This document shows positions 756 to 53,475 of a stretch of DNA of 64,000 bases, in pieces. Below the pieces are notes generated by a model that worked only from the letters and a program-made list of their open reading frames with translations, was not told the origin of the DNA and made no database searches. The translations under genes and the position numbers were made by a program. The stretch lies in assembly GCA_036850965.1 (NCBI GenBank), contig JAZGQO010000011.1, forward strand, positions 61,687,281-61,751,280. The letters run 5' to 3'. The stretch comes from Patella caerulea (Eukaryota). Position 1 is the first letter of the stretch. Every line of letters begins with the position of its first letter.

Positions 756-895
756 GGGGGGTTGGGACGGCCTAGTGGTCTAGAGTGCCGCGCTTCGACC
801 TCTAGCTGGCCGGTCACCTCTGGCTTGCGGCTGTGGTTTCGAGCCCTGGTGTGAACGTATGTGACATGGAGATAGGGGCTCCTTCTCAACCTCGT

Positions 896-926
<31 letters not shown>

Positions 927-1047
927 ACTACTAAAGACCCCTACGCGCAGGCGAATTATTGAAATAAAATTAAAACCATATGTTAGTCCCGAAATGACCT
1001 AGTTTGTGTTGAGTGGACGTTAAACCCCATTTCTCTCTCTCTCTCTA
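756..1047 (+). mobile_element. SINE family A, subtype A1. tRNA-like head gggggttgggatggcctagtggtctagagtgccgcgcttcgacctctagctggccggtc..., conserved body, tail ...gacgttaaaccccatttc(tc)n.
   Basis: Near-identical copies occur at 8561-8848, 36641-36920 and 37338-37616. The head has a D-arm-like gcctagtggtctagagtgc and a T-arm-like ggtttcgagccc. ORF 623..928(-) is an artefact of translating this element. Confidence 0.8.
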
Positions 1048-6849: not shown

Positions 6850-7110
6850 AAATACTCTATTGCTTGTACGTGTACCACTCGCCTGCTCTGCCATTGAGTC
6901 AACTGGCGTGGTTTAGAATCCCCGGTTGTACGTGGCAAGGATTAGGGTCGCCTGTCCAACCTCGTGGGTTTTCTCCGGGTACTCCGGTTTCCTCCCACTG
7001 CTAAAGACCCCTACGCGCAAGCGAATAGTTGAAATGAAATTAATCCATATCATATTTTAGCCCCGAAATGAGACCTAATAATTTGTGTCAAGTGGACGTT
7101 AAACCTCATG
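6850..7110 (+). mobile_element. SINE family A, subtype A2. It has an alternative tRNA-like head (...gagtcaactggcgtggtttagaatccccggttgtacgtggcaagg...) on the same body and tail.
   Basis: The body and tail (caacctcgtgggttttctccgggtactccggtttcctcccactgctaaagacccctacgcgcaagcgaat...gtggacgttaaacc) are shared with A1. The head matches the copies at 47490-47770 and, in reverse, at 20235-20470, 40340-40598 and 37078-37325. Confidence 0.7.
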
Positions 7111-7275: not shown

Positions 7276-8560
7276 TTATCAGTGTGGCGGAAAATTACAC
7301 ATCTATTCACTTCCAAGTTTACCACTGACAAGATGGCGGTGGAGTTGGTTTTAGCTTTCTATCAATAAAGTAAACTTATCTCGTGTTAGATTTTGTAAGT
7401 AGAACCATCATCACTGCTCTTCAGCTAATTACTATCTTATTAATATACAGTTCATACACTACTGGGGGTTGGAACCAGGGTGGCTCGGTGAATATAGGAC
7501 GTTTATCCACTAACCACCACGTACCTGGATCGATCCCGATGTTTGCCGAGAGCGTGCATCGGTATATTCCGTCCCAATATCCTCTTATCAGTGATGCACG
7601 TCTAGTTCTTCGGGTAGGACGAAACCACGGAGGTACTGCGTAATGAAGGGCGTCTGCCCGTCTCCATTAGTCGGAGGGGTGGGGAAATCCCCTCCCAGCT
7701 ACGGTAGTTTACAGAGATTACTTTATTGTTTTGAATGAATTATTTTACAAAAATTTAATGTATAAATAGATAAATAAAAAAGGCATGTGTTAGTGTGCAA
7801 AATATCGACCAGACATGAGTACAAAATTTTCTTATTAACTCATTAGTGTTTTTACCGTTTGTAATTAATACAGAAAATTTCTCGTCTTTGATTCCGATAA
7901 TTAAATATATCATCTTTCTACTTCATGTATATATACCTTAATTACATACTTATTAATATACCTACTTATACCACGGTTTATATACCACGGTTTTCATTAT
8001 GTACCACAGTGTATATATCCCACTTATTACTTACCATATCTACCTAATGAATAGACAGCTTGTTGATTCGCTTCATCAACTTTTTCTCAAAACATTAATT
8101 ATCAGCCAATACTCATTTACTGCTACTTACAACAACTTAGCATTTTTTTTTAAAGCCTGCACAGATTTTCTATTAGCTTTAGACGATTTTCTAAATTAAC
8201 ATCCCAACTAAATAGGACTCCTCTCCCCTTCTTAATTTTGTATTTTATCATAATTCATTTATATCCAATCCAACCGGTCATGGATGTTCAATTTCTAATA
8301 AATATTTATTTTCTCCCATTACTTTTGAGATAATTTTTACCGTCAAAATCTGTTCCCACTTCACCTCTCATTTTAATTTAGAAATCTTCTTTATAAGTGG
8401 CCCGTTTTCATTAACCCAGTCGGCTGAGAAACGTAAGACATTAAAACAAATTTAATTTCTTGTAGGTGGTGATTCACCTCGTCGGGTTTCTAGGTTTAAT
8501 ATAAATAATTAAATCTTGCCATATTACATTTTACTATTGACGTGTTTGCTCTATTATAAG

Positions 8561-8848
8561 GGGGGTTGGGATGGCCTAGTGGTTTAGAGTGCCGCGCTTC
8601 AACCTCTAGCTGGCCGGTCACCTCTGGCTTGCGGCTGTGGTTTTGAGCCCTGGTGTCAGCGTATGTGGCATGGAGATAGGGGCGCCTTCTCAACCTCGTG
8701 GGTTTCCTCCGGGCACTCCGGTTTACTCCCACTGCTAAAGACCCTACGCGCAAGCGAATTATTGAAATAAAATTAAACCATATGTTAGTCCCGAAATGAT
8801 CTAGTTTGTGTTGAGTGGACGTTAAACTCCATTTCTCTCTCTCTCGCT
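8561..8848 (+). mobile_element. SINE A1, full length, with a target-site duplication.
   Basis: The flanks are ...gctctattataa|GGGGGG... and ...ctctctcgctctattatag. An 11-bp direct repeat gctctattata brackets the element. ORF 8496..8753(-) is an artefact. Confidence 0.85.
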
Positions 8849-9507
8849 CTATTATAGATCACTTGTAATTTTATTCACGAATCTTCTCATAATTTTATGA
8901 GAAGCATCTTTATGCGTGAAGCGCTGCCTTGCATAATTTTCCAGCGTGGTTTCCCCACCTTGAGCGTCTGACAAGGAACAAAGTGTATTCGTGCAGATGG
9001 TACGAAAACCAAGGCCCGTTGGTGTACACGACAAATAACCCGCGGCCGTTGGAATTCGGTGAACTTAAAGTAAGTGTACAAGTAAAAGTTAGAAATCGAC
9101 TTCGTGCAAAATTCTACACAAGCTGCATAGTGTACGCCCCTCTTCTTTTCCTTGATTTATGCAGAAAAGTAGGACGTTAAACCCCATTTCATTTCATTTC
9201 TTATAATTGATTATTGCCTCGTTTTACACCATTATTAAATGTTGAAATGTTTATCTATTTATATTTTTGTTGAAAGTTAATCTGAAAATTAAATAAAGGC
9301 TTGTTTCACCTAATCAATAAACTATGTGTAATGATATTTTAATTATTATTAATTTTTTTTTACCTGAAACTAAATTATCAATTTGTGTAACATCAAACAC
9401 ACGTTTTCACCTGCATGATTATTTATATATTGATGTAGACAAAAACATTAATGAGTTTATATAACAGATGAACTCCTGCGACATCGAAATGCGATAAAAT
9501 TAAATTG

Positions 9508-9630
9508 GGTTTAACGTCCTGCATTTCTGAACCAACTGGGATAATAATGACAAGCATACGCCATACAATGCGCTATGAGTGAATTTTGCCCAGTCAGCGA
9601 TATGTTCGCTTAATCGTCAACGAATTACAG
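9508..9630 (-). mobile_element. SINE family B fragment, placed immediately 5' of the SINE-A fragment.
   Basis: ggtttaacgtcctgcatttctgaaccaactggg...catacgccatacaatgcgctatgagtgaattttgcccagtcagcga matches the B-family tail region. Confidence 0.45.
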
Positions 9631-9644: not shown

Positions 9645-9800
9645 TGAGAGGGTGGGGTTTAACGTCCACTTGACATAAACTAGGTCATTTCGGGACTAAC
9701 ACATGATTCCACCTTATTGCAATAATTCGCTTGCGCGTAGGGGACTTTAAAAGTCTGTGGGGAAACCGGAAGACCCGGAGAAAACCCACGAGGTTGGATA
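9645..9800 (-). mobile_element. SINE A copy lacking the 5' head, in reverse orientation.
   Basis: On the + strand it reads gagggtggggtttaacgtccacttgacataaactaggtcatttcgggactaac...cgcttgcgcgtagggg...ggaaaccgga, which is the reverse complement of the A body and tail. Confidence 0.6.
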
Positions 9801-12459
9801 GCATCAAATTGCAACTGTCAAGGGTTCTGTTACGGTTATAACGACCAGCTTTATTTAATGAAATGGATAAAAAGAGAAGAAATGAAATAGGTTTCACGTT
9901 CCGCTTCCCCGAATAAACCTGGCTACTGTAGACGGATTAAATTTAATACGAAAAAAAAACCTTTGTATTTGTATAAAATTAATTTTTGATTGGTTGTCGA
10001 GTAAATAATCTTTATAATTTCTTTTTCTAGAAAAAAATATAAATTGATTGCGCGGTCTGATTTATCTCTACAGGGTCAGCACTTTATAAAATAAACCTGA
10101 GATAAAAGCCAGCTTAATTTCTTGTTATTTGTTAGCTTTAATCATATCGATTGTTGAATATTCATATTATTTTTTGCATATTCATATTACACGTAATTTT
10201 TAAATTCTAACAATTAAGAAATTCTAACTACTTAGGCTCATTATATTCAATCTTGCACATATCGCTATAGCGTTACCATATTAAACTTGGTTTGTCTGTC
10301 AACAGTTAGCCCCGCTTCAGAACAGACACTAAGCTAGTTGGCCGACATTTTAAGTTCTAAATCGACGATTTTAGTCAAAAACACTTAGTATATTTTGCGA
10401 ATTTTGTTGAGTATTTAATTTATTCTGATTCCATTTGTATATGTAATAAAATTGAATTATGACACGTGAAATGGAGTACACACGCATTATACAATAGTGT
10501 GACCATTTATTACGCTAGACAGATCTCTTTGTGCAGAATGTAGCATGATTTTGGTAGCCAGCTAATCCAAACAAAACGATAACAGTTGTTGCGGTTTTTT
10601 TTAGTATTATAGACATTTGTAGCCACGGATCAGATCCTGAACAAAGGCTACTTGAAATCATCAAAACACCTTCCCGAAAGACAAGCAAATCTCTTCTCAA
10701 AAATGAAAATACATTTTGAAAGCATGATTGACGCACATGTTCGTCCTTCTTCGTATGGCGAGAAAATGAAATATAGAATATCAAACGAAGCGACACAAAA
10801 ATCCGTTGAGAATAGAAAAAGGCATGTGGCTGTGTTTTTAAACAATGACTGACAACTACATTCGCCATGTTGATATGGTCAATTACAAAATATAACTTTG
10901 ATAAGAAACGAAACGACAAGTAAATCCGGTTAATGATATTCAATCTGGTTGGGAGTATTAGTCCGCGATACTTGAACCGATGCTAATCACAACCTCAGAT
11001 ATTTAACAAAAGCTCATTGCTGATCCGGGGGAAGTAACTCGTTCTTTATTTACCTTGATCACCGGTCAACAACTGTCAAAATTAATCAAGGAGATAATGC
11101 CCGGTAATTAGAACTCTTTTTAAGTGAAGGTAATTTAAACGCGCTATTTGTCTGACGGCCATATTGGAAACTCATCAGACGTCGACTGAGCGAAAATTAA
11201 TCAATGGCGGAGTTATTTCGTTCCGTTTATTTGACTCGGAAAAGAAAACATGCTTAAAGGTTGAACGTGTTTGATGGATCGACTTTGATATCCAATCAAC
11301 GATGACAAATTAGTGCGCGCTAATTAACTCCTCTTTTTGTCTTTTAAGATGAGTTGTCGCTATGTATTGGTTGTTGATAAGTGGAAACATTTGGTTGCTG
11401 TTAGCGTTTAGTTGTAAACAACTGCCAGATTTCCTTTACCACCCGGGATCGTTTTGACTGGGGAATTAAACTATTATAACTGGACATGACTATAATATAT
11501 TTATGTGTTCATGATTGTTAGAAAGGGGGTTGGGGACTCCCAGTGCCGACCTGATAATATTTCGGTAGGACGGAGGGCCTATCAAGGGATGAAATGCCGA
11601 GGTCCCGTTTACACATTGGCGTGCTCTTAACTATAAATAAGGAAGCGAAATAGGATTCGTTTTTTACTCAAATTGGGTAATTCACATAGCTTAAACCGTT
11701 TGGTTGGAATTTAATATCGTAATATTCAATAAAATATTTTGCCATTTTTTCATGAACATTTGATACCACCTCCCATTCATTTGGGAAGCTTGAATAGCTA
11801 ACGACTTTTGTCATCTTGCTTTCTAACACATAACAACAATAAATTAAGTTGTGCTTGAGGTAGAATGTGTTTATTTTCAAGAACGTTCGATATTTCACAT
11901 AGCCAACAATTGTATCTAATAATTTGACTCTGTCGTATAGGTACGTGTTTGTTTATTTATCTGAAGATATAAACCCATTTCGAACTCCAACGATTCCAAA
12001 CTTCTCCCTCTAGTTTATTTACTCTATTAAAGTAGCCGACTCGAACAACCCACAATCGACACGGGTATTTCACTACTGTTAGGTTTCTCGCTTCCACGAG
12101 TCCAGATTTTTACTGAACCCTAACGAAGTTGTCATTTTCCATTTTTCATAGTTTAGTAAATAAATATGGCTGACTGTTAGTAATGTTATCTCTCTGACTT
12201 CATCAGTTACAACCGGATTGTACTCGTGCGAGGTGGAAATACAAAATGTTAAAAATGTCCCAGAAATCTGGAAGCAAACATCTGGTAGGGGCCGATTGGG
12301 TACAGATTCCTCCTGAGTTTGACAGACTGGCTGTCAGTCCATGGTTAAACAGACGACATGCTACCACAACCATTTATTGTAAACATGCCCGTTAAACACT
12401 TTTAAGACTCAACTTGTAAACAGTCTTCGTGCAGCGGGCAATCGTGTGATGCAAATGTA

Positions 12460-12725
12460 AAGATAAAAATGGGATTAATGCCTTACGTTTTGGGGCTAAC
12501 GAAGACGGGTAGACGTCAATGTGCAGTGAGGAAAATTTTGCCCGGATCGTCTGTTATTGCGAATTCCAAATGTCAAAGGTTCTTTTACGTTTACTTTGAT
12601 ATGTTTACGGTTTACGGGACCTCTTTTTTTTGTGTCACATCCTAACGACTTTTTCAGTGTATACCCGTCTTCATTGGAAACGTTGATGCAGCAAAGTACG
12701 ACGTTAAACTCTATTTCATTTTATT
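12460..12725. mobile_element. Composite of SINE-B fragments, a reverse body followed by a forward tail.
   Basis: gggctaacgaagacgggtagacg...gtgaggaaaattttgcccggatcgtc...gcgaattccaaatgtcaaagg, then ...cagcaaagtacgacgttaaactctatttcattttatttt. Confidence 0.4.
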
Positions 12726-14930: not shown

Positions 14931-17217
14931 CCATTTAAAAACTTATTGAATCCTTGCACTACTTTTCTCAAATACAACGTTCGAAAAATCAAATTCTTAA
15001 TTTGTTGGATGCCCGAATAAATTTTGGAATGTACGACCTATCGCCCACCCAGATTTTGTAACCCTAACTCAAACGGTATCCTGTAACTTAAACCCGTTAA
15101 CATCCACTTATCCTGTTGGCGTAACCTATGTGGTCGAGACCTCTGTGGATGAAAACCACCATTAGAAATGAATAACCCCGGTGGAGTTGACGTGGCCTTA
15201 AGTCGGCTATCACCATGCCGATAAATCTGTTTGACGACCAGAGGAAATATTTATATCTACATGTACATATATATATATAATGAAAGATGTTTGTCAGAAA
15301 GCGGTCGGTTATATCAACACCTTTTAGATTCTGTACTGTGCCGTTATCAACAATATTTCACGCTTGTGCATCTCGCCAGAGCAATATTATTTTTATTGCC
15401 CGTCAACTGGAGAGCTATAATTTTGACATCAAACGATCGGATTGGTCGTAAGAGATTTAACATCTGTAAAAATCATAGTCGTTAAAACCATTAATACATA
15501 TATATATTCACATACATCGCAATGGTATTACAATCAAACAGGAAGTGCTGGGAGGAAATAGGGCCCCTTGATATTGCTAATTGATTCTAGATCGCGTTCT
15601 TGAAAAAATCCGTTACTTCTGCCGACTTAAAATCCCTTACTTAAAGAGTAATTATTCAAGAGCTAAATATGCCTATTGTAGGTTTTTCTTTAGACTTGAA
15701 ATGTTATTTTATTAACACGACAAGATCATAATCAACTCTCGATGCCATTGGATGGTCCCAATTTTAAGTAGATTAGAATGGTTCGGCCATTTTATGATTT
15801 AATTTAAAAATGGTTACGATAATAAACAACCAATGCACACATCTTGTCAAAACTACAAACAGTGATAACATCGCTCAGAATGAAGTAATTTGAATGAAAT
15901 GTTCAATAAATTCATTTTACAATATCTATTTTGAGCTTTTAAAGCAAAAAGGATCATTTCTTTATCTAAATCATACATAATGTATCTTTAATGTTGCATC
16001 AACATTTGTTTGTTTTTTTTTTGTTCTGAGATCTTTTATTTTATTCTCGTCGATTCATCTTGGAAAATGGCGTCAAACTCAGATAATTACAGGATATAAA
16101 AAGATTTACTAGTAATACAATAATCATATGTTATGATATATAATTATTTATAAAGATTTACTACAGTGTAATTATTATCTAATATAACATCATCAAATCT
16201 TTTCACGTCTATTTTCAACTAGTTTCACGCTTGTAATGACATGTACAATAAACCGACTTCATATACTATTGTGAATTTTTCAAACTTGAATACAGAAATT
16301 ATAATAGCTGATGGCTATCGTAGATTACCTTTCATGGAATAAAATGACAGGGCAAAGTTTTAAATTTAGGAGAATAAAGGCGATTATAATAATATCAGCT
16401 TTAAAACGGGAGGTCACCACATTGAATCTATGAATGAAACCATATTTTTTTTTTTAAAAAAAAAGAAGAAAATAATGGGCGAACACAGAATTATTACAGC
16501 CTATTTAAACATACAATATGCAAAAGCTAAAGCTGCCTATTGCAGGTCTTTCTTTAGATCTGAAATCTAAAATTCTCTGAAAGTAGTATCCGAGTTTACC
16601 ATCTTATTTTATGTTGGATAAGTATTTAAAACAGCAAGGGGATCTTTTACGTTCACGTCCATGTCTACACGGGTTGTTCCTCGGATCTTTGTACTTCCCG
16701 ACCGACTTGTCACATTTCCTTTTCAGTCCCATAGCCACGCCACCCGTGACAGGAGAGAATCAGGCTTGAAATTCCAGAAGGTTGTTTTTCACCCACAGCG
16801 GAATTCAAACTCGGGGCACTCTGGTGGAATATTGTCTTGACGAGACATTAAACCCCGTTCCATTTAAATCTCTATATAGCACCTTATACCACTAGTCCCG
16901 AAATGACCTAGTTTGTGTCGAGGTGACGTTAAACCCCATTTTCTCTTTATACCCCTTCTGGTTTTCATTGTCCCCATTTTATTTCTATCACGAAGGACTT
17001 GTCTGTCCGAAACGGCGATTAAAAGGCTTAAACGGCCATAAAGTCACATAAACACTGTTCACTTCAAAACTAGAAATTGTTGAGATTTTTAATCTTTTGT
17101 AATGTAGTCGGTTTTAATTTCTAACTGAATTTTATCGCTTTCTTGTTTTACACGAGACTTGTCAACTATTTAGACCTACAGCTAAGATATCCCAGCACTT
17201 AGAGCTGAAATAAATAG

Positions 17218-37325: not shown

Positions 37326-37337
37326 AACAAAATTGGG

Positions 37338-37450: not shown

Positions 37451-37481
<31 letters not shown>

Positions 37482-37709: not shown

Positions 37710-37835
37710 TTGCACCATAGGGTCCGGAATTGAGTCAAGTGGCATGGCTTTGATAACCCGCTTGTACGTAGCAAGGAGTAGGGTCGCCTGTCCAACCTCT
37801 CGGGTTTTTCTCCGGGTTCTCCATTTTCCCACCTG
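37710..37835 (+). mobile_element. SINE A2 fragment, truncated at the 3' end.
   Basis: gagtcaagtggcatggctttgataacccgcttgtacgtagcaaggagtagggtcgcctgtccaacctctcgggtttttctccgggttctcc. Confidence 0.5.
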
Positions 37836-38461: not shown

Positions 38462-38808
38462 AAATGAAATGAAATGGGGTTTAACGTCCTACTCTTTTTG
38501 CACCTAACCTGGGCTAATGGAAGACGGGCATACGCCATACAGTGTGCTATGAGGGAAATTTTGCCCGAGCAGCGGCGCTACTGCCTACTCTTATATCGAA
38601 TTCCAACTCCAATGCGTAAACGGGACCTCGGTTTTTCGTCCCATCCGAACGACTAGGCAGCTGTCCTTGCTAGGCCCTCCTTCTGCATCACTGACAAGGG
38701 GAAACCACGCCGAAAAATCGAGATGAACTTTCTCGGCTAATGCAGGGATCACACACCCGACCTCCAGGCTAGCGAACCAGCGCCTTATCCACTTAGCCAC
38801 CGTGACCC
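38462..38808 (-). mobile_element. SINE family B, full length. On the + strand it reads tail first, gaaatgaaatggggtttaacgtcc..., and ends with a tRNA-like head, ...ctccaggctagcgaaccagcgccttatccacttagccaccgtgacccc.
   Basis: The reverse complement of the right end, ggggtcacggtggctaagtggataaggcgctgg...gtgatccc, resembles a tRNA head (D-loop tggataaggcg). The tail (cattt)n/gacgttaaaccccatttc is shared with family A. ORFs 38474..38656(+) and 38591..38800(-) are artefacts. Confidence 0.75.
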
Positions 38809-39647
38809 CTTAAAAATGTTAAGATACATATAATGAAAGGTAGGTGATAACAGTTTGGCATGTAACCATTAATCTTCCCCGAAAGGATGAGGGAATATAA
38901 GAGAAGGAGGGAGAGAGCGACGGGGTTTTACGTCCACTCAGTACCAACTAGGTTTTTTTGGGATTAGCCGATTGCACATTATTGGACCAGGAACTCAACA
39001 TCTTGTTCTTATTTCAGCTCTCTCTTCGAGTAAAAGGCTTGACCAATTCATGAAACTTGGTTTATTTGTTCCTTGGGCAATTCGATTTTGATATTATGTC
39101 GCAATGTTAAGATGACGGTGTTCACGTCATAATGGGTTCCTGGTCCATAGTGGGGCCTTTAGCAGTGGTGGTGGTAGTTGTTGGGGTGGGTGCGGGGGTA
39201 GGTTAGACTACCCTGCATGATGGAATCGAAAAGGTACCACTGTCTGTACGGAAAATGAAATTACAAGATATCCGGCTCTGAAGAAGAGAGAACTGAAATT
39301 CAGTCTGTCCCAACTTGTACAATCCGATTGAAACACAGATCCTATTTCGTTTCGTTTTTGATAGTTGAAAATTTCGTTTTACTTGTCGTCATGAGTTCTA
39401 GTTGATATAAGGAATTAGGCGATGAAATGGTCTGTTACGGCTCTGCTCGGAACTGTGGGTAAAAACCTAGAAACGTCAACGCTGATTGATTAATCAATGT
39501 CTGACGTCATATGCCAAACGCCACTTGAATGACTGTAAACAATCGAAAGTATAATGTAAACCGAAACAAAATATAGATCTGTATTTTAATCAGGCTGTAA
39601 CTTGTGTGAACTTAATAGCAAGTAGAGGAGGACCCCACTACACATAA

Positions 39648-40339: not shown

Positions 40340-40598
40340 ATGTGAGAGAGATAGGTTAAAGTCCACTCGACACAAACCAGGTCATTTCGTGACTAGTATA
40401 TGGTTCAATTGCATTTCAATCAATCGCTTGCGTGTTGGGCCTTTACCATAGGGAGCAAACCGGAGGACACGGAGAAAACCGACGAGTTGGACAGGCGACT
40501 CCGCTCCTTGTCACGTACAAGCAGTGAAGCGAAACCGCGCCAACTGACTCGATGAGAGGTCTTATGATGCAACGCGCGTTAACCATTCGGCCACCCAA
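40340..40598 (-). mobile_element. SINE A2, reverse orientation.
   Basis: gagagataggttaaagtccactcgacacaaaccaggtcatttcgtgactag...caagcagtgaagcgaaaccgcgccaactgactcgatgagaggtc...gttaaccattcggccaccc. Confidence 0.7.
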
Positions 40599-41204
40599 CA
40601 CCCCTGACGTCATGGGTTAGAACGTCAAACCATAAGAACGTCAAACCAAAATCTAAACATGAATAAATAAAGTGTTCCAAGACAACATATTCTTTGCCAG
40701 ACTTTGTAAAATTTCGTGACATCCGAATCTCTCCATGGTGAATTAGGCACTTGAATGGTGGTCAAATTATAATGCATTTTCAGGTTTTTTGTGACAATGA
40801 GTTTGCGAGTACAACTGTCTTCTTTAGCCATGTCGAGGCAAAAACGTAGACCTTAAACACCCTACTAGAAGATGGAACCTCGCTTTATCATCTCCCCCGA
40901 ACGACTAGATGTTTGTCCCTTGTCAGGACCTTCGTTGTCGACGAACACTAAACTAGATCCCGGGACCTGCGTCTCAGTTAGCCAACCAGCGTTGTACCCG
41001 CTAAATCATCGTGACCCTCTCTCACGTGGTTAAGCTGGCCTAACTGTCACGTCCAGTGAAAGAATAACTTTATCTATTTCCCATTAGCATCAGTAAGCTA
41101 ATAACATATATAAACATTATCAATTGATTACTCCTGTGGAAATAGCAATTAATCATGGCGGTTCATTTAAAGTAGCTAAGTCTCCAACTCAATATCATCC
41201 AAAA

Positions 41205-41400
41205 TCTTCAACATTGAAAACACGAATTATTTAAATCGACATTGATGATGTGATCTTACCGGAAAAAGATGGGCTTCTAATATCTAATATTTAAGACAAA
41301 ATAAACATTTTACCATTGGTATATGAATCGAGTACCATGATGCGTTTCTGCCCCAGTTGTAACAAGAGACTATAGGAACAAGGCTACACATATTCCTTAC
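41205..41400 (-). repeat. Dispersed repeat family X, partial copy 3, inverted.
   Basis: atttaaatcgacattgatgatgtgatcttaccggaaaaagatgggcttctaatatc...taaacattttaccattggtatatgaatcgagtaccatga is the reverse complement of the 3' half of copies 1 and 2. Confidence 0.55.
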
Positions 41401-42794
41401 AAGTCTTATACGGAACCCCTAACTTACATCGAGATGGCTTTGTAATCTGCAGTGCAATGGGGTGGCAACCGTGTGAACTAATGACGTCTTTCTGAAATTA
41501 AAGTCCACCAATCAGTAATGGTTTCACCATTAAAACTTGAATGTTAATTGTCGTCTCTTAAACGAGATCCAGTTTTTCCCAAAATTTCGTTGGGTAGTGG
41601 GCTTTCTACCACAGATGAAGCAACGCGTGGCATCTGCTTGCTCATAAACACATATAAGGTTCACCAAGAAAAAAACAATTTTCCTAACTACATATCAACG
41701 AACCAACCTCCCAACTCCCGTATCCTTCCGCCTCAAAATCATGAATATTGATCAAAACCAGGCAGAAAATGTATTTTCAAACCCCCTTTTTTAGTTCCCA
41801 CACAAGTCAACAACAATCGCCATGCAAAAGGGAGAGAAAGACTAAAAATAATTTTCGCCCTTCGTAGGAATATTTTGTGAGCTGTGTCAAAAACACATGT
41901 TGTAAAGACTGTAGCAGATTTGGTTGGTAACGCTTTTCACGGATTGGGGGCTGCTGTAATGTGTACATGGTGGTATCCAGATTGAACGAGGTTCCTGGCT
42001 TTTGGTCCATCATTAGTCAATGTCTGTTACAGCCAATTGTCACATCTTGTTAAAAGAAAACCACTTTACTAGGTGTTACTTCCAACTAAAAACGTCGGCC
42101 GTTAATTTGTCAAGTCAATAAAGTCAAAAGGATGGGAGAATCCATCGCCCATTATAGGAAAGATAGCGCCAGTGTAAAATAGCTTTATTGCGGGAACTTC
42201 GCTGAGTAATGATCGACCGGCTAGAAAGCTATTTTGACACGATGAGGTGATGAGTCTTCATTATGGACAACCAGCCGAACCAAAATTGTAAATTAGATAT
42301 AATTTCTATAAGAATGAAGTGAAATGGGTTGAACGCCCACTTCAATTACCAAGATGTCTGTACATATGGGGGAGCAAGTAAAAGAACCGTTGGCAGTTGG
42401 AGGTCGACGAAGTGTATGCTTAAACGCCAATGTCCGGGCAACACTTCTTTACTGCATGGTTATTTACACAAGGTTTCTGAATTCCTATTGCATTTCATCT
42501 CGCCTACATAACAAACTCAAATTTTGACCTAAACAGCTGTCCGTATCGATTAATCGACATTGGAGTACCGGAGTAGTTTGAATTAGGTGTGTTTGAGATG
42601 TAAAAACTTTTGACGGCTGCCAGTGGATGTCTTGTAATAATCTATAGTGCTTGTCTGAAGATCTGAGACTGTGAATAGTCGACGCTACTCGTTCTCACAA
42701 ATTGAAATACTTCTATTAACTTTATGTGACGTTCATCTAATGTTATTGATGACTAACAAAAGGTGTGAATATGCTTTATCTTCAAGACTGTTAT

Positions 42795-42970
42795 ACGCGA
42801 AATGAAATGCGGTTAACGTCTTACTTTTCAACACCAAACGGGTGTACGCCATGTATTATTCTATACAGCATATTTTGTACAACCAATTGCACAACGACCA
42901 ACTCTTATCTCGAATTCCATCGCCCCATTCGAATGAATGACCTTGTGCTGGAAACAAGATAGCCAGATAG
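42795..42970 (-). mobile_element. SINE B fragment, reverse orientation.
   Basis: gaaatgaaatgcggttaacgtcttacttttcaacaccaaacgggtgtacgccatgtattattctatacagcatattttgtacaacc...atctcgaattccatcg. ORF 42765..42962(+) is an artefact. Confidence 0.5.
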
Positions 42971-43119
42971 CTGAATTTCAGGTGGAGATTCCGGTGTCCT
43001 GACGCCCACCCCGACTAAATATGAACGGAGTTGACGCAAAGTATATATCATATTATCTGGTGACGGTATGGACATGTATCCTCCATGGTTCTTTTACCAC
43101 AGGACTTTCCATCGTCCCC

Positions 43120-43325
43120 TTGTTACTGATGGAAGAGGGGCGGGGATAGCAGGGAACAGTGAATAGTCGTTCAAATCGGACCAAATTCTGAGGCTCCCCG
43201 TACACGTTGACGCGCACGTAAATAAAGCCTTGACAGTTGGAATTCGCAATAAGAGTAAGCTGTAGCACAGCTATCTCAGCAAAACGTTCCTCATAGCACG
43301 TTAAACCCAATTTGATTTCATTTCA
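43120..43325 (+). mobile_element. SINE B fragment, forward orientation.
   Basis: ccccttgttactgatggaagagg...agtcgttcaaatcggacc...ctcatagcacgttaaacccaatttgatttcatttc. ORF 43053..43310(-) is an artefact. Confidence 0.55.
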
Positions 43326-44262: not shown

Positions 44263-45334
44263 TTACCAGAAGTAAATTTACGCGTTCTTGTCATAGATGG
44301 ATCGAAAGAAAAAATGCGCGGTCATGTGACATTATCAGGACATGTACGCGATCTCGTGATATGTCCAGAAGGCCGTAAACGCGGCCATTTAATATGATAC
44401 GCTCTTAACATTGGCACCGGTGAACACAGTGGTGTAAGATTTTTATTTCGACGCCACTCACACACCTACGCTATTCAGGCCTATTCGTGATTCAAGAATG
44501 TAGAATATTGATCTTCCAGGGCTAGGGACGGGGCCATCAAGTCTCATCCTATATACCTACCATCCGAAGCGTTATGCTTGGATGAAAACACACATTTCAG
44601 AAAGTTTTTAAAATGGTAGCTAAAATAATCTGATCAGGACTACTTTTGTGGCTCTCTATCATCGGTTTTGTGGACTACATCAAGTCCGCTTCGTGTTCGG
44701 GCTGATGAACGTTTTACTAGTTTTCACAACTTTGTTTTTGTTTTTAAGTAGTAATTTTATTGATCAAAAGAGAACCCGATGTTTTATAGAAATCGATCTA
44801 CTGGCGTAACGATGATAAATCGCTAATGCCCGCCTATTGTAAACCTACGATCTAGAGGTGATGACAACAATTGGCGGGAAACATCACTCAACAGACGTAA
44901 AACGTATGACGTGTCAGTTCCTATTAGCACGAGCTGGGGTAAATTCAACTTAAAACCGGAACAATGAGACAGAAGGGATTGCTAGTTAAACATTTATCGA
45001 GTGCGGAAAACGATAATTTAATAAAAATGTGATCTATGAGCGGACACAACATGATTTACATTTTTTTCTAACATTAGGTGTGTCGCAGACGGATAATCAC
45101 ATTTAAAAGAAAATATCTAACTCTGAGAATATTTTCTGTGTGTTTTTGTTTTTTTTATCTTTCATCGCCATGAAGATATTACAGTCTTATTATATTTTGA
45201 TATCCAGTCTGACAGTTGAAAGTTGATTTTTTTATAGCAACATTATCAATTGCAGAGGTGGCAAATTAAAGAAAAAAAGTAAGGCTGGTTTTTTCATTTG
45301 CCTTACTGGTGGTATTATTAATTGTAAGCGAAAT

Positions 45335-45555
45335 AAAATGAAATGGGGTTTAACGTCCTATTTCTTTGAACCAACCTGTTCAAAGAAGATGGGAATGTGC
45401 CATTCAGTGTGATACGAGGGACATTTTGTACTGGCAACGGTGTTACTATACTCTTGTATACCTGTAGACGTTTTTCTGTTTCATCCGAACGACTAGACGT
45501 TGTTCCATGCAAGTTCCTCCGTCCCGCACCACCGCAGCTACCAAGAAATGTTAAA
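45335..45555 (-). mobile_element. SINE B, reverse orientation.
   Basis: aaataaaatgaaatggggtttaacgtcctatttc...gtgtgatacgagggacattttgtactggcaacgg...tttcatccgaacgactagacgttgttcc. Confidence 0.6.
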
Positions 45556-45729: not shown

Positions 45730-45895
45730 TGCCCGTCCAACCGCGTGGGTTTTCTTCCGGTTCTCTTGTTTCTTCCCACTGCTAAAGACCCCGACGCACA
45801 AGCGAATTATTGAAATAAAATGGAACCATATGTAAGTCTCGAAATGACCTAGTTTGTGTCGAGTGGTTGTTAAATCCTATTCTCTCGTTTCAATT
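45730..45895 (+). mobile_element. SINE A copy truncated at the 5' end.
   Basis: ccaaccgcgtgggttttcttccggttctcttgtttcttcccactgctaaagaccccgacgcacaagcgaattattgaaataaaatggaacc...gtcgagtggttgttaaatcc. It abuts a SINE-B copy at 45335-45555. ORF 45397..45813(+) is an artefact. Confidence 0.6.
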
Positions 45896-45924: not shown

Positions 45925-46250
45925 TTCGTTTCGTTTTTTAATACTCTCGATGGCCTACACTACATAAAGATCAGAGCAGTCGTAGCGATAGGTGACGTCA
46001 GAGTTCATACGAGCGGCTTTTGACCATATGACGTCAGAATTTGATTAACCAATCAGTGTTGACGTTTCTAGTCGATTAACCACAGTTCCGTGCATTACAC
46101 GCAAAGAACTCACCGTAACATACCTTTTCATTGGCTAATCCCTCACTTCATCTAAAACGCCACTAATATAACAACTCTTGCAGATCCTAGTTTAGTAAAG
46201 ACAAGTAAAACAAAATTTTGAACTATAAAAAACGAAACGAAATAGTGTCT
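45925..46250. mobile_element. MITE-like element, copy 1 of 2, with TIRs of atatttcgtttcgttttttata.
   Basis: It starts aatatttcgtttcgttttttaatactctcgatgg and ends ctataaaaaacgaaacgaaata. The copy at 46575-46995 shares about 85% of the interior, e.g. ...gacgtcagaatttgattaaccaatcagtgttgacgtttctagtcgattaaccacagttccgtgca.... Confidence 0.55.
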
Positions 46251-46574: not shown

Positions 46575-46995
46575 CAATATTTCGTTTCGTTTTTTTATAC
46601 TTTCGATGGGATACGCTACAGGAGAACGCTAGATCGGAGACGGTCCTACGCATTTTATGACGTCACATGTGGATTGTGGGTTAGGGTAGGACCGTCTCCG
46701 ATCTAGCGTTCTCCTACGCTACATGAAAATCTGACCGGTTGCAGCGATAAGTCGCGATCGTGTCAAAGATCATACGCGCGGCTTTGATCCTATGACGTCA
46801 GATATTTGATTAATCAATCAGCATTGATGTTTCTAGTGGATTACGCACAGTTCCGTGCACCACACGCCAAAAACTCGCCGTTATAGACGGTTTCATTGGT
46901 TAATCCCTCACTTCAACCAGAACGCAGGTAATTTAACAACTCTTTCAGATTATAATGTAATAAAGACAAGTAAAACGAAATTTTGAACTATAAAA
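46575..46995. mobile_element. MITE-like element, copy 2. It carries an insertion of about 110 bp that contains a perfect 29-bp inverted repeat.
   Basis: The TIRs are the same as in copy 1. The extra segment 46612-46722 contains ggagaacgctagatcggagacggtcctac (46619-46647) and its exact reverse complement gtaggaccgtctccgatctagcgttctcc (46689-46717). Between them is a 41-bp spacer containing tgacgtca. Confidence 0.55.
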
Positions 46996-47489
46996 AACGA
47001 AACGAAATATATATAGAACCCGTGTTTTAAACAGTTTGATCGAATATAATTTAAATTGATTGAAACACCATCGCGATTTAATAATTTGATTTGAAAATAA
47101 ATAAACGAGCCTTTGCTTATATCGTAACAATGGTACTTGACAACCGAGACTATATTTTTGATTATCTAGTATTAAACAATTATATATAGTAAGAACGATC
47201 AGCCCTTTATCTAAATCTGACATAATGCATCTTTCAATGTTAAAATATAGCTATAAGTGCAATTTAGCTGGGATTGAAATATTAACAAGTCTTAGTTGCC
47301 GACACGATTGTCATGGAAGGGAAGGGGGTGTTGGTATGGAGGGGTGGGGCTTGTTTCAGTAGATAATAATAACGACTTTTTCAAGCAGTAATACATTAGT
47401 AAAATTAGGTTTCCTTCAAGGCAAAAAGAAAGGTTTATGTTTGGTCAGTATTAACCTAGTATTGTTTTTGATATATATGAATGTTCTGG

Positions 47490-47770
47490 GAAATTGCATG
47501 GCCGAATCGTTAGCACATGTGCGTTGTATCATAAGGTCTGTTATTCGATCAACTGGCGTGGTTTCGATTCCCAGGTTGTATGTGACAAGAGTAGGGTCGC
47601 CTCTCCAATCTCGTGGGTTTTCTCGCCCCCCCCCCGGTTTCCTCCCACCGCTAAAGACCCCTACGCGCAAGCGAATTATTGAAATAAAAATTGAATCATA
47701 TGTTAGTCTCGAAATGACCTAGTTTGTGTCGAGTGGACGTTAAACCTCATTTCTCTCTCGCTCTCCATTC
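47490..47770 (+). mobile_element. SINE A2, full length.
   Basis: Head ...tggccgaatcgttagcacatgtgcgttgtatcataaggtctgttattcgatcaactggcgtggtttcgattcccaggttgtatgtgacaag.... Body and tail ...gtcgagtggacgttaaacctcatttctctctcgctctcc. ORFs 47416..47670(-), 47441..47722(+) and 47494..47682(+) are artefacts. Confidence 0.75.
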
Positions 47771-48871
47771 ATATTCTCTCATTACATTTTATACTTTATC
47801 AAGCAATGATCATAAAGACTATAGAGAAACCGAATCGAAACGTCGTCCAGTAAATGAGCATTAATTGTATTCCATAGAATTGTGTCATGTGTATTTAAAT
47901 GGATGACTTGTTTGATTGTATAAAAGGTTAAGGAAGACAGATGTTGATGCGATTATCAGAGAAACAGATCCACAACTTCACACATCCTTTACAGACAATG
48001 AGAACCTATTAATGGCCACTGGTAATTTATCCTAAAAGTCACTCGATTAGTGCTAATAAATCAGACACGCCCCTTGATCATTATAAACCTATATAATCAA
48101 TGTCTTTAAGGGACATGTGGTAGTATGGTATGCTTTACCCGACGAAAATGTGGTGCTGCAGTTTAACATGTGTATACATTTTGGCGGATATTTCAATCCG
48201 TGAAGTTAGAATCGGAAGCGATTTAATAGTTTAGGTATTTATAGCCGGTTTTTATGACGTATTAATTAACTTCCCCATAGACATTCTATTAGCTAGTATA
48301 ACACCTCGGTTAGATTGTTCACATCGTCTGGGAAATTATTCATTGTGGTTTTATTAACCCCCATCTCTAGCTTTATAGTCCATTACTATTTTGCTTTAAT
48401 ACCAAGATTTTTATTGTCTGCAAAATTTCCCACTTCACTTGTCAGCGGAAACATCCATTTTAAAACCCCGTCTAAATACAATGTAAATCACCACCTTTTA
48501 TTGGGTAACTTGATTTTGATCTTGTCCATATCCCTTTCAATGTTGATATCCCAAAAGAATAACCGTCCTAATCTATTATTACGTTATGCTGGCGTCAACA
48601 ACAAATGGCGTGATAGGTTTAATGGATTGGCGGTCGTCGCTGTTGGCACAATTTTCTTTAAAAAAATAAAAAGATTTGCTGCGCTGTGATTCCAACTGCC
48701 AAGGGATATTTAGGCTTACGCTAGTATGTGTACTAGAGAATCTCTGTATTGGTGTCATTCGAAAGAAATGGCGATACCCCTTGTTCACCATTGGCGTTGG
48801 GTGGGGTGGGGTGTTGGGAGAGAGGGGGGGGCATTTAAGGACTAATATATGGTTCAGTTTTATTCTAATCA

Positions 48872-49132
48872 GGTTTCCCCTTGTCAGTGATGCAGAACGG
48901 AGGGCCTGACAAGAACAGCTGCCTAGTCGTTCGGATGGAATGGAAAACCGAGGTCCTGTGTACACATTGGCGTGCACATAAAGGATCCCTTGACATTTGG
49001 AATTCGATATCAATGAAGGCCGTAGCGCGGCTGCCCGGGCAAAAATTTCCCTCATAACACACTCTATTGCTTATGGTCGTCTTCCATTGGCCCAGGTTAA
49101 GTGCAGAAGACTAAGACGTTAAACCCTATTTG
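48872..49132 (+). mobile_element. SINE B, forward orientation.
   Basis: cccttgtcagtgatgcagaacggagggcctgacaagaacagctgcctagtcgttcggatggaatggaaaaccgaggtcctgtgtacac...agacgttaaaccctatttg. ORFs 48579..49055(-) and 48865..49062(-) are artefacts. Confidence 0.65.
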
Positions 49133-49489
49133 TTTCTGTACGGGGCTGTCGTAGGATAGACGACCCCGCTACTTTTCACGTGCGAATAAATTCAAGTTGG
49201 TTGGGTAACCAGGCCACATTACTCAATATCAGACCTTATGATCTAAAATGCACTCAATAAATCATTGGTTTGATTAGGAAAATGTAAGACGTTAAACACT
49301 CTTCTTTCATTTAACTAATCGTTTATTTTTTTTTTATTTCTAGAATCGAATTATATGTAAATTATCTGTAATTATGTATTGTCAGGGGTCTCATTAAAAC
49401 TAAATAAATGGATAATTGCTCCTTACTTCCGTCCCCTTTGTCCAATTAGTAGACCCAAGGTTTTTTGTCGAATAGTAAGTGTATGAGAA

Positions 49490-49800
49490 CGACATTGCAC
49501 ATGGTAATCCTGATTCGTAAACAGTGATTTTCTGGTAATCTTAACATGGTTGTTATAGTGGTAATAAACATTCTTAAACACAGTGGTTGTGTTGTAATCT
49601 TAACTCGTAAACACGATTGTTATATGGTAATCTTTATTCGTAAACACGATGACCATATGGTAATCTTGATTCGTAAAGATGGTAGTTAGGTGGCAATTTT
49701 AATTCGTAACCACGGTGGTGGTTAATTGGTAGACTAATCTTTATTCTTAAACACGGTGGTTGTGTGGTAATCTTTATTTGTAAACACGTTGGTTGCTATT
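49490..49800. repeat. Minisatellite with a unit of about 40-45 bp, ggtaatcttgattcgtaaacacgatggttatat.
   Basis: About 7 units each contain tcgtaaacac(g/a) and ggtaatct. Confidence 0.7.
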
Positions 49801-50359
49801 ATTGAAAGCGGGGTAATACAATCATATCAAATATAAAACTATTTACAATCCGTACACTTTAAAAAAAATATACTGTTACATTCAACATTATACAGAGGCT
49901 CTTGAAAACGTCGACATAACCATAGACTAAAATAAACCAAGCAGAATATAATCTTTCTAAAATGGCATATTGGTTGAAAAATGATTAAAAACAATCAATA
50001 TTAACAGAAATACTAGCTGTCTATCAACAAACATCGAGTACAAGATGGTATCTAGCCCACGTTTTTCTGTTGTTGATAAATTTAAAAAAAGGAAAATGGT
50101 TATTGACATTTTGAATTAATACCCCAGCAATAACCCATGAGTATCCCCAACTCCTTCCCTCCCCCAAACACAAAACCCCAAGACAACTTATATAGGCTCT
50201 TGCCCGTTGTTCTACCCGATTTATTTTATTGAATAAAATAATGTTCAAACTAAACTAATCAACACACAGCCTCGTAAACAATATGACCAGAAAGTGCTAC
50301 TGGATCTATTTTATGTCCCTGTAGAGGAGTAGGGTGACTGATCGATGTAACGTGTGCGC

Positions 50360-50500
50360 TTTTGGTCATTAGGTGTGTCTTTAAGGCCAATGCCGTGTGT
50401 TGATCCCGGTCTTATACGCGACAGGAGCGTGTCCAGCCACGTGGGTGTTCTCCGTGTCCTTCTTAAAGAGCCCTGCGGATAAGCTAATTATCTGAATAAG
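50360..50500 (+). mobile_element. Highly diverged SINE A2 relic.
   Basis: ggtcattaggtgtgtctttaaggccaatgccgtgtgttgatcccggtcttatacgcgacaggagcgtgtccagccacgtgggtgttctccgtgtcc...gagccctgcggataagctaattatctgaataag follows the A2 consensus with many substitutions. Confidence 0.4.
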
Positions 50501-53257
50501 AATATACCTCGCTCACAGAATACCTTCAAAACTTAAATTGAAAATAATATTAAAAAATTGGTTTCAAACGTGTATGTTATCAACCACAATATATATATAT
50601 ACGGCTAAACAATTAAAGGAAATAATTCTATACAAAATAACTATAAAAGTATCAAAGTTATAATATATCCCTTTTGTAATGACTTTGTTCCTAAGTCTAA
50701 CAAATATGACTTTCAAGTCCGTAATTCAAGGGGAACAACTCCTTTTAAGTGAGTCAATTTCTTTCGGGATCACCTCGTCATTGGCGCTAACAGTCGGTTC
50801 ATGTGCATTTGGTGTGTGGTGCGGTCCTCCTTCACTTTCTATAAAGAAAGTATTTTTTAAAGGGCAACTGATCCATGAAATTCAAAATAGCGCAAAATAA
50901 AACAAAATCAATAGAATATGATACAGAAAAATTCAGTAGCATGAAAATATAGATACACATTATAAAAAGCATTCTGACCGTCCTGACTGGACTACGTGAT
51001 TTTTGGGTGTGGTCTAAAAACTGCCTTCTTAAATAAGGATAAGAATTATGTCCCTTTATTTTCGGTAAAAATGTCCGACAAGAAAAAATTTGAATCCCCA
51101 TCACTGGTCAATACCTTTGGTAAACATGAATATATAGCTGTTATATTACGACTAAACAAAAGGGTAGGACAAGGGGTATGAAAAGCTGCACCAATTACCA
51201 TTAATAAAATAATATATCAAAAATACTGAAATATATTAAAATACCAATTTGTACAAAAAAAATATAGTAAGGGATTCAAAGTTACTCCCCTTATCAACAA
51301 TCAACAGTAAGGGATTCAAAGTTACTCCCCTTATCCACAATCAGACATTAAAGTATGCAAGTACAATCATAATATTTTATGAAAGAATGTACACACTGAA
51401 AATATACAAAATGAATATATAAATGTCAATTATATCCCTTTAGTTAAAACAATATGTTTCTATAACAATATTGTTTTAAATATAAAAATACCGAACCGCT
51501 CCAGGTCTTTGCACCGAGTTAAAGGGCAATTTTGGTGCCATTATCACATATGTCATAGAGCCCATTGCTATGTTTTCTATTTTGTGTGTCACTTCCGTTT
51601 TTCTTTCAAATCATAGTTATACATCTATCGTATCAATGATCTATGTGTTAAAAATACATTTGGAATGTGTTTAACCAATTCTATCACATATGAAATAATG
51701 GCTGACACCAGTATTGCCCTTTCAACAGTTCTATCACATTTATGATAATGGCTGGCACTAATATTGTCCGTTAAAACGGGCTATATTATGGCTATCTACA
51801 AACTTATTGAATCTTACAAATCACCACTTTTCCCAAATATAAGATATCTTAGATGTTTTTTTAAAAATTCATTTTCATACTAAACACTTAGTTTTATTAA
51901 AAGCTGAATAATGACAACAAATTATTCTGGCCAGCTTATATTACCTGCCATTTAAAAAAACCAAAAACCAAACAATAATAGCCCACATAGTTATCCATAT
52001 TAAGACTACAAGAGTTATCTCCGCTGTATATTTATAATCAGAACATGCGCATTAGGCAAGCTGTTCGTCATGTATTTTATACAGTACTATTTATGATGAA
52101 CTCTGTTTATTTTTAGTGAAGCCTGTACCATGACAGGCCCGGGACTGTAGAGCGCAGTGGACGCTTACGGCTGGCCCCCGGATCCATTCACTTGATTTGA
52201 TATTTTCCGCAGGTTAATCTTATAGGTTTTTGTTTTTCGTGTAGTGTGGCCCTCCTGCACTTAGTATTATAGTTAAAGATGTATCAGACTGAAACTGAAG
52301 ATCGTACTACATCTACTGTAATTTTGGATGTCACCGTAACCCGAAATGCAATTACATTAAACATTTTTTTAATGAAATGTCGCTACTGTGGCCTTAGACC
52401 TGACCAGAAACGGAAATAAAAATTACATTCCACAAAAGGAAGGTCTCTAATTAAAGTAAATTATCAAAAATATCTTCCTTTCAAAAGTTATATAGGGGGA
52501 GATAAGTCCGATGTCAACAGTTTAACTTCAACACTGCTGGCGATCAAAATCCCCGAAGGACTTACTTATATTGCAGTCCATTATCAAATTGAAGTCCATT
52601 ATCAAATTGAAGTTCAGTATAAATTATCAAAAAAGTATTTTCCTTTCAATATACAACCCACACAAGGTGAAATAGTCCTTTTTCAACAGTTTAACTTAAA
52701 CACTGTTTAGGATCAAAATCCGGGAAGAACTGTTGAATAGACTCAGCATTAAGTTCAATGACGTGATTAACATCTGTATCTGTACAGTGTTGATGATAAT
52801 TAGCGTAAATATTGTCAGTTAAACACATTATACCATTTAACAGATGCCTGCAAAACAAAACAACAGAGAATCAATCGGAGATATTTGGGGGAATGGGGAC
52901 CGTCGTAAAATTCCGTCCAAACGAATATCCTGAGTGAGGGGGTTGAACGACATCGTGGATAGAAAATGATAAATCATTTAAAAGGTCGGTTCCTTAGTCT
53001 TTAACCCGCATCAAAATCCAGCTCTGTCAACATGTTATTACCCTGTCGGTGCGGGTAGGCTGGTGGGTAGCGATCTATCGCGGGTTCTGCGTATGGACGA
53101 AAGTGTTGACATTTTGTGACCCCCCCCCCCTTAAGATAAATATTGTTGATTTTGCCCCGAATCCCTTGTCAAGAATTGTTGAAGTCTGGAATATACATGG
53201 TCGTATATCATGGCGTCCTCATAATTGCCATATGAGATGCAGAGAGAGTGAATGTGG

Positions 53258-53475
53258 TGTAACGCCCACTCGACGTAAACTAGGTCATTTCGTTAAATTG
53301 TAATTGTATTTCAATAATTCGCTTGCGCATAAGGTAGTGGGAGGTAACCGGAAGATCAAGAGAAAACCCGCGAAATTGGGCATGCGGCCCTACTCCTTGT
53401 CACGTACAACCGGAGAATCGAAACCACGCCAGTGACAAACCTTATGACACAGCTCGCACCAGCTAACCATTGAGT
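53258..53475 (-). mobile_element. SINE A2, reverse orientation.
   Basis: gtgtaacgcccactcgacgtaaactaggtcatttcg...caataattcgcttgcgcataagg...caaccggagaatcgaaaccacgccagtgacaaaccttatgacacagc. ORF 53049..53303(+) runs into it. Confidence 0.65.

Follow-up and report, generated by a model that had tools for sequence, protein, structure and literature searches.

Two families of short interspersed elements with one common 3′ tail around Lbx of the limpet Patella caerulea

Long interspersed nuclear elements (LINEs) of the ‘stringent’ kind end in a specific sequence and a short tandem repeat, not in poly(A). The short interspersed nuclear elements (SINEs) of molluscs are modular, with bodies and tails that are common to several families (PMC4758252), and homologous LINE-derived tails recur across different SINE superfamilies of bivalves, whose partners are CR1-Zenon, Nimb, L2, and CR1 (PMC11481361). 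Nin-DC SINEs have been described in Lottia gigantea, and Patella genomes contain many truncated copies of them (PMC4758252, PMC11121367); one such element, Lgi-Nin-DC-SINE1 of L. gigantea (Piskurek and Jackson 2011, cited in both), measures 369 bp and is, by its 3′ part, the source of the Patella satellite PcH-sat (PMC11121367). In Patellogastropoda, Matetovici et al. 2016 detected neither MESC nor Snail-domain SINEs (PMC4758252). The present work deals with a stretch of 64,000 nucleotides from the genome of Patella caerulea, henceforth the window (NCBI GenBank assembly GCA_036850965.1, contig JAZGQO010000011.1, positions 61,687,281 to 61,751,280 of the forward strand), in which two SINE families, named A and B, end in the same 3′ tail; the two families are unrelated to each other and have probably been mobilised through the machinery of a single LINE by means of this tail and the terminal repeat that follows it.

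Set against the described systems, A and B are real SINEs of a known type and at most new members in a little-studied clade; neither was described in the studies of mosaic SINEs (PMC4758252, PMC11481361). They resemble UnaSINE1/UnaL2 of the eel and the bivalve SINEs paired with CR1, L2, CR1-Zenon, or Nimb (PMC11481361, PMC4758252) in having a specific 3′ end followed by a short repeat, target-site duplications (TSDs) of about 10 bp, 5′ truncation, and homologous tails on different SINEs of one genome, whereas here the common block measures 19 nt, no common stem-loop was found, and the terminal repeat is (TC)n in one family and (ATTTC)n in the other. The arrangement of head, body, and tail is as modular as in the mosaic or ‘jigsaw’ SINEs (Matetovici et al. 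2016, PMC4758252; Martelossi et al. 2024, PMC11481361): one body (A) occurs with two heads, one tail occurs on two unrelated bodies, and the copies lie in or near genes, in this case in and around Lbx. Similarly, A shares with the Nin-DC/Deu SINEs of molluscs its host clade, patellogastropod, and its architecture, in which the head contains boxes A and B, the central block is strongly conserved, and the 3′ part varies; its length of 265-290 bp compares with the 369 bp of Lgi-Nin-DC-SINE1 (PMC11121367).

The tail is what the two families have in common. The pattern GACGTTAAACCCCATTTC has 22 matches on both strands of the window at ≤3 mismatches, against 0.10 expected, and each of the 22 closes a copy of A or B at its 3′ end. 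The tail is present in the profile consensus of each family, and the only block common to the two consensus sequences is AGT(A)GGACGTTAAACCCCATTTC, exact over 19 nt; once the tail is removed, the best local score between A and B is 20, against 17.6 ± 2.1 for shuffled sequences, and because their similarity without the tail stays at shuffle level, A and B are two families and not one. When each tail match is printed with its flanks, family A reads ...GTCCCGAAATGACCTAGTTTGTGTYGAGTG, the tail, and (TC)n, and family B reads ...CATTAGCCCAGGTTAGGTGCAGAAAAGTAG, the tail, and (ATTTC)n; in all intact copies, what immediately follows the 19-mer is this terminal repeat and not poly(A). The initial annotation of the window, a reading of the letters by a model, had claimed one tail on two families with different heads and bodies, and tail enrichment, alignments, and consensus comparison agree on this point. 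A suspected older copy of the tail inside B (...GGGACGAAAAACCGAGGTCCCG...) was dropped, its local alignment being no better than those of shuffles.

Copies were found with iterated nhmmer profiles of A and B, and the family alignments were made by MAFFT. The profile search yields 19 copies or fragments of A and 25 of B, 44 in total, where the initial annotation had noted about 35; both orientations are represented, as had been reported (A, 10 on the plus and 9 on the minus strand; B, 11 and 14). The ‘large share of the window’ that was claimed for them amounts to 13-16%: of the window's bases, 8,548 (13.4%) belong to the two families together, a share that rises to 16.2% for the interval 756-53475, and no copy of either lies beyond 53480. 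Two neighbouring pairs pointed out beforehand are recovered, namely B at 9494-9629 (-) beside A at 9653-9801 (-), and B at 45332-45535 (-) beside A at 45731-45880 (+). Closer still is the arrangement at 48806-49270, where a 5′-truncated B copy (48862-49135, +) stands within a minus-strand A2 copy and where the two meet, the A central block lacks ~55 nt; the insertion is a nested one and came with a deletion, and the two families, one lying inside the other here, therefore overlapped in their activity.

Family A (~265-290 bp) is resolved by the MAFFT alignment into two head variants, A1 and A2, on a common body; behind the head, in which box A and box B lie, come a central block of high conservation (CTCGTGGGTTTYCTCCGGG..CTCCGGTTTCCTCCCAC), a 3′ body rich in A/T, the tail, and (TC)n, in this order. 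The bodies of A1 and A2 are nearly identical; their heads can be aligned at 93 of 139 positions, the score of this alignment being 68 and that of shuffles -8 ± 9.5, and the differences fall mainly between box A and box B. Because the heads align so far above shuffles, A1 looks like a subfamily whose head was remodelled from that of A2, or partly replaced, and not like the bearer of an independent one; the two alternative heads on one body of the initial annotation are thus retained as variants, which are not unrelated. The A1 copies begin with a run of 5 to 11 G (756-761, 8560-8565, 36641-36651, 37613-37617), which in the copy at 36641 stands in place of the first ~10 nt of the head; as reverse transcription ended, slippage or the untemplated addition of nucleotides may have produced this run. 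The central block, CGTGGGTTTYCTCCGGG..CTCCGGTTTCCTCCCAC, looks much like the Deu/Nin-DC core of vertebrate and invertebrate SINEs, to which it may be homologous; this likeness is a lead. A full-text literature sequence search gave no usable reference for the Nin-DC/Deu domain or for families A and B, and the PcH-sat primers (PMC11121367) have no match in the window.

Family B (~340 bp) differs from A in head and body, as the alignments show, and carries (ATTTC)n after the tail. Six of its copies reach profile positions 1-17 and begin with the same head, which contains box A and box B; no copy runs upstream of this head, and no named known element was matched by the body. The motifs used for the promoter boxes were TRGCNNAGTGG (box A) and GGTTCGANNCC (box B), with which seven box A...box B pairs were obtained, each in an A head and at one fixed position there, as compared with ~2 per Markov control; in the B consensus head, direct reading gives TGGCTTAGTGG for box A and GGTTCGATCTC for box B. 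On this motif evidence, the heads of both families appear to contain internal promoter motifs for RNA polymerase III (Pol III). At a threshold of 85%, the program ARAGORN called the B consensus head tRNA-like, in a cloverleaf fold with an abnormal 8-nt anticodon loop and a 4-base ‘anticodon’, cgct, that specifies no amino acid; the A1 and A2 heads were never called tRNA. The tRNA ancestry of the heads is weakly shown. In A, box A and box B are spaced 51-57 nt apart, and by this longer spacing and its motifs GATGGCCGARTGGTYTA / GGCGTGGTTTCGA the head may be comparable to class II (Leu/Ser) tRNAs, as the B head may be to tRNA-Arg, the label given to it in the initial annotation; both comparisons are leads and not results.

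The manner of insertion can be read from the ends of the copies. Five TSDs of 10-12 bp, with a sequence that differs from copy to copy, are intact: three belong to A1 copies, one to a full B copy, and one, AAACAAGTTTGG, surrounds a tandem of A1 and A2, whereas older copies have lost theirs. The two 11-bp duplications reported at the outset, GCTCTATTATA and CGGTGATTGGA, prove exact on both sides of their A1 copies, and TCTAAGTTCAAC, AACATTTTTA, and AAACAAGTTTGG are additional to them. Truncation is always 5′ and graded, the B copies starting at profile positions 1, 16, 36, 77, 85, 104, 126, 150, 200, 270, etc. Terminal inverted repeats (TIRs) were not seen in A1, A2, or B when their first 40 nt were compared with their last 40 nt in reverse complement (scores, 5-6; means of shuffles, 5.2-5.6). 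Both families are short, non-coding, and dispersed, and have no protein domain in Pfam. This anatomy is that of Pol III-type SINEs, which would have been placed by target-primed reverse transcription; the LINE-type, target-primed retrotransposition proposed in the initial annotation is fitted alike by the TSDs, the 5′ truncation, the tail with its repeat, and the lack of TIRs.

Divergence from the local consensus is 1.5-4.7% in A1 (n = 4), with TSDs intact, 7-19% in A2, with TSDs mostly lost, and 9-32% in B, with one TSD intact, and these values are floors because each consensus was built from few local copies, that of A1 especially. A1 is the latest wave, and B and A2 are old; the copy-to-consensus values of A1 and its intact TSDs thereby bear out the earlier suggestion of fairly recent activity. 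At 37058-37631, A1 and A2 are joined head to tail on the minus strand, and the 12-bp AAACAAGTTTGG is found at both outer ends; the site was apparently used twice, hinting at a target preference of the endonuclease, with the insertion of a pre-formed dimer as an alternative. In the same region, Rfam returned a MIR7533-like match at 36885-37106 (37 bits; gathering score 230). A MIR7533 microRNA gene was rejected, the hairpin being made of the inverted tails of A1 at 36641-36919 (+) and A2 at 37070-37324 (-).

In the course of events preferred here, the steps that leave no direct trace are modelled on established SINE/LINE pairs such as UnaSINE1/UnaL2. Master copies would be transcribed by Pol III from the internal A and B boxes, and a ‘stringent’ LINE reverse transcriptase, encoded elsewhere in the genome, would recognise, on the 3′ end of the RNA, GGACGTTAAACCCCATTTC together with the short repeat that terminates it. 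Target-primed integration would leave the observed 10-12-bp TSDs of arbitrary sequence, and incomplete reverse transcription would leave the graded 5′ truncation; slippage at the start of reverse transcription may extend the last bases of the tail, from ..ATTTC to (ATTTC)n in B and from ..TC to (TC)n in A. Activity was staggered, with B and A2 early and A1 last, and all of the insertions are missing from the colinear Lbx locus of Lottia gigantea.

The partner itself was sought within and outside the window. No reverse transcriptase (RT) or endonuclease (EN) domain of Pfam occurs in the 118 stop-to-stop open reading frames (ORFs) of ≥70 aa in the window, a scan that badly decayed fragments would escape, and the sole Pfam match among these ORFs is the Lbx homeodomain; within this range of lengths, the reported lack of an RT ORF is upheld. 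Among metagenome contigs, an exact 24-mer scan gave 0 matches and an exact 19-mer scan gave 4, of which that on contig L006 is informative, that on L004 is weak, and those on L003 and L005 were rejected as chance. The 2 matches in a scan of prokaryote genomes are likewise chance, with no extended similarity, and a scan of viral contigs with the tail pattern gave 0 matches. Contig L006 reads ...GTCCCCGATATGACCTATAATGTGTTTAGTGGGACGTTAAACCCCATTTC(AATC)4, of which 47 nt are homologous to the 3′ end of A (nhmmer E = 2e-5); the homology stops at the exact boundary of A, after which a different microsatellite, (AATC)4, begins. With the same boundary before a different microsatellite, the tail therefore marks a retroposon 3′ end beyond this genome, which supports its interpretation as the putative business end of a retroposon module that also exists elsewhere. 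Also on L006, at 120-395 (-), lies an ORF (…KYSDFGPIEGY…) with ~200 relatives on short JGI/ENA metagenome contigs, by which it is identified as a repeated element of a eukaryote. Three further A copies of 90-95% identity are carried by the 3.1-kb ENA contig L002, and a protein search with an ORF that reads through A1 matched only two ORFs, both on that contig.

Several results weigh against the proposed mobilisation of A and B through one LINE. Neither the window nor the metagenome, prokaryote, or viral collections yielded a LINE that ends in this way at its 3′ side, and it is therefore by inference that the tail is traced to one partner LINE. The block shared by A and B is short, with just 19 nt, and folding found no conserved stem-loop common to the two tails: Alifold gives a weak GAAATG/CATTTC pairing of -4.8 kcal/mol for A and no consensus structure for B, and single-sequence folds of the tail differ among A, B, and contig L006. 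As for the heads, ARAGORN in its default mode found 0 tRNAs in the 64-kb window, and Rfam gave no tRNA match on the 64 kb at E ≤ 1, and none at E ≤ 10 either on a 2.3-kb sequence that includes four heads or on the best B head (94 nt) by itself. Moreover, the use of a local consensus from few copies (n = 4 for A1) means that the divergences are underestimated.

A rival account, tenable although on the doubtful side, retains mobilisation by the same LINE and holds that the tail was captured from it once and then passed between the SINE families by recombination or template switching, as in a ‘mosaic’. The shared part, with its sharp boundary after just 19 nt, and the frequent adjacency or nesting of A and B, which provides the opportunity, speak for such an exchange, as does the preference for module swapping as the model of mollusc SINEs (PMC4758252, PMC11481361). 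However, the data of the window fit independent capture equally well, and the homology between A and L006 extends ~28 nt upstream of the shared block, where B has none, which suggests that A holds a longer piece of the source.

It is very improbable that family B represents the 3′ untranslated end of the partner LINE in 5′-truncated form, with a ‘head’ that is a chance flank or a chimera. Such a reading would accommodate the 5′ truncation of most B copies at graded positions and the lack of an Rfam tRNA match for individual B heads, but six copies share a head with boxes A and B, the 349-bp full copy is bounded by its 10-bp TSD right at the head, no copy continues upstream of it, no RT/EN domain lies beside any B copy, and the consensus head is folded as a cloverleaf by ARAGORN at its relaxed threshold. 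The explanation of the shared tail as a chance or simple-repeat artefact, or of A and B as one mis-assembled family, is refuted: low-complexity repeats do come after the tail, but the 19-mer is itself complex, its 22 occurrences compare with 0.1 expected, it stands in both consensus sequences (and is not, as the initial annotation had feared, absent from one of them), TSD-bounded full-length copies exist in each family, A copies recur on an independent ENA contig, and the A/B similarity that a single family in a chimeric assembly would display does not go beyond the tail. Equally refuted is an identity of A and B as non-autonomous DNA transposons (miniature inverted-repeat transposable elements, MITEs), of which the window holds TIR-bearing, MITE-like families, by TIR scores at shuffle level, variable TSDs of 10-12 bp, one-sided truncation at the 5′ end only, and a microsatellite ending at the 3′ side.

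Beyond the mobilisation of A and B through one LINE, which is preferred here, a bolder proposal can be made, which is itself unlikely: a ~47-nt 3′ module, ...GTCCCGAAATGACCTAGTTTGTGTYGAGTGGACGTTAAACCCCATTTC, might be what is recognised at the 3′ end of a LINE lineage that is long-lived and undescribed; such a lineage would be shared by animals only distantly related to each other and would have driven, in this limpet, at least three successive SINE waves (B, A2, and A1). On metagenome contig L006, a near-identical 3′ module closes an element and is followed by a different microsatellite, and if the proposal were true, the two hits at AAACAAGTTTGG would hint at a sequence-preferring endonuclease.

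The window is A/T-rich, with a G+C content of 32-42% across its length, and contains a homeodomain exon of Lbx (ladybird) at 26502-26978 (+; Pfam Homeodomain, 2.5e-20), the best named full-length match of which is LOTGIDRAFT_63559 of Lottia gigantea, with 81% identity that includes the non-homeodomain C-terminus. Exon 1 of Lbx was not found within the window, and much of 1-26500 may therefore be intron. Eight conserved blocks, mostly non-coding and with 74-85% identity, make the window colinear with the Lbx locus of L. gigantea (L001), and the host is accordingly a gastropod rather near to L. gigantea yet distinct from it, probably another patellogastropod; the interval 1618-43573 occupies 42 kb in the window, as compared with 20 kb in its Lottia counterpart, and A and B SINEs contribute 6.8 kb of the ~22 kb by which the window locus exceeds the Lottia locus. 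Neither family, nor the tail, was found in this colinear locus by blastn and nhmmer (38 kb of Lottia sequence). A further ORF of 910 aa at 54392-57124 (-), rich in Ser/Thr/Asp/His/Asn, continues as an open frame for another ~100 codons upstream; Pfam recognises no domain in it, its exact product is absent from records, and a secreted or disordered protein is probably what this ORF encodes, as one large exon.

When the window is compared with itself, 17% of it turns out to be present more than once. Besides A and B, family C (~245 bp; 17487-17721, 34489-34733, and 59348-59532) has the TIRs CAGGGGCGGATCCAGG ... CCTGGATCCGCGCCTG and is MITE-like and unrelated to A or B. Family E (~300 bp; 45954-46244, 46713-47009, and 39327-39532), with the TIRs ATTTCGTTTCGTTTT ... 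AAAACGAAACGAAAT, is MITE-like as well and also occurs on the ENA contig L002, at 1097-1247, beside A copies. Family D (~215 bp) has three copies of 79-84% identity, at 24775-24921, 29923-30138, and 41167-41379. The self-comparison also reveals minisatellite arrays that are unrelated to the SINEs, at 19914-20111, 22376-22537, 23941-24125, 49570-49791, 61461-61659, and 61774-62046.

Table 1. Copies and fragments of families A and B in the window, with strand and distinguishing details (profile, positions in the family profile; diverged, difference from the local consensus)
Copy	Position	Strand	Details
A1, full length, tail and (TC)n	756-1043	+	1.4% from A1 consensus; TSD TCTAAGTTCAAC at 744-755 and 1044-1055
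A1, full length	8560-8845	+	3.3% diverged; TSD GCTCTATTATA at 8548-8558 and 8846-8856
A1, full length, G-run 5′ end	36641-36919	+	4.5% diverged; TSD CGGTGATTGGA at 36630-36640 and 36920-36930
A1, full length, in tandem with A2 at 37070-37324	37337-37617	-	2.2% diverged; target AAACAAGTTTGG at 37618-37629
A2, full length	37070-37324	-	target AAACAAGTTTGG at 37058-37069; degenerate copy AAACAAAATTGG at 37325-37336 between the elements
A2, 5′-truncated	6883-7109	+	profile 42-258
A, 5′-truncated	9653-9801	-	profile 111-257
A, 3′ fragment with tail	16876-16940	+	tail-only remnant just upstream, 16844-16861
A2 with head, internal deletion	20241-20471	-	by profile and alignment
A2	31448-31685	+	13% diverged
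A2, head/body fragment	37709-37855	+	profile 32-177
A, 3′ fragment	38920-38996	-	by profile
A2, near full length	40354-40598	-	by profile and alignment
A, 5′-truncated	45731-45880	+	profile 109-258
A2, full length	47494-47751	+	7% diverged
A2, 3′ part, interrupted by B copy	48829-48916	-	by profile
A2, 5′ part (head), same interrupted copy as 48829-48916	49151-49264	-	by profile
A2, head/body fragment, old	50331-50508	+	17% diverged
A2	53251-53479	-	13% diverged
B, full length, best preserved, head GGGGTCACGGTGGCTAAGTGGATAAGGCGCTGG..., tail and (ATTTC)n	38462-38810	-	349 bp; 8.7% diverged; TSD AACATTTTTA at 38811-38820 and 38452-38461
B, full length with head	34831-35162	-	profile 1-342
B, near full length	18531-18827	+	profile 16-342
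B, near full length	33460-33757	+	profile 17-342
B, head and 5′ body only	7476-7642	+	profile 1-188
B, head and 5′ body only	40862-41013	-	profile 1-195
B, 5′ half	16655-16825	-	profile 36-199
B, 5′ fragment	21218-21366	-	profile 41-176
B, 5′-truncated, with tail	20923-21194	-	profile 77-342
B, 5′-truncated, tail and (ATTTC)3	8934-9198	+	profile 85-342
B, 5′-truncated, internal deletion just before tail	43100-43299	+	tail at 43297-43314
B, 5′-truncated, inside A2 copy	48862-49135	+	profile 89-337
B, 5′-truncated	25192-25431	+	profile 104-339
B, 5′-truncated	45332-45535	-	profile 111-342
B, 5′-truncated	34207-34398	-	profile 126-342
B, 5′-truncated	28238-28458	-	profile 133-336
B, 5′-truncated	17220-17415	-	profile 148-340
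B, 5′-truncated	12463-12651	-	profile 150-336
B, 5′-truncated	42799-42945	-	profile 175-339
B, 5′-truncated	9494-9629	-	profile 200-341
B, 5′-truncated	31303-31422	-	profile 213-341
B, 3′ end only	12657-12724	+	profile 270-341
B, 3′ end fragment, weak	8400-8460	+	profile 276-340; E = 1.4e-4
B, internal fragment, weak	11569-11711	+	by profile
B, internal fragment, weak	42386-42459	+	E = 2.8e-4

Current SINE biology is unchallenged by families A and B, and their value is of a more practical kind. Together with the MITE-like families nearby, they make up about one-sixth of the sequence around Lbx, and they should be named and masked before regulatory elements or genes are searched for in this region. 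The 19-nt tail is a precise probe for the partner LINE; moreover, A1 was by its appearance active recently, and its insertions, scored as present or absent, could be used as markers for species or populations of limpets.

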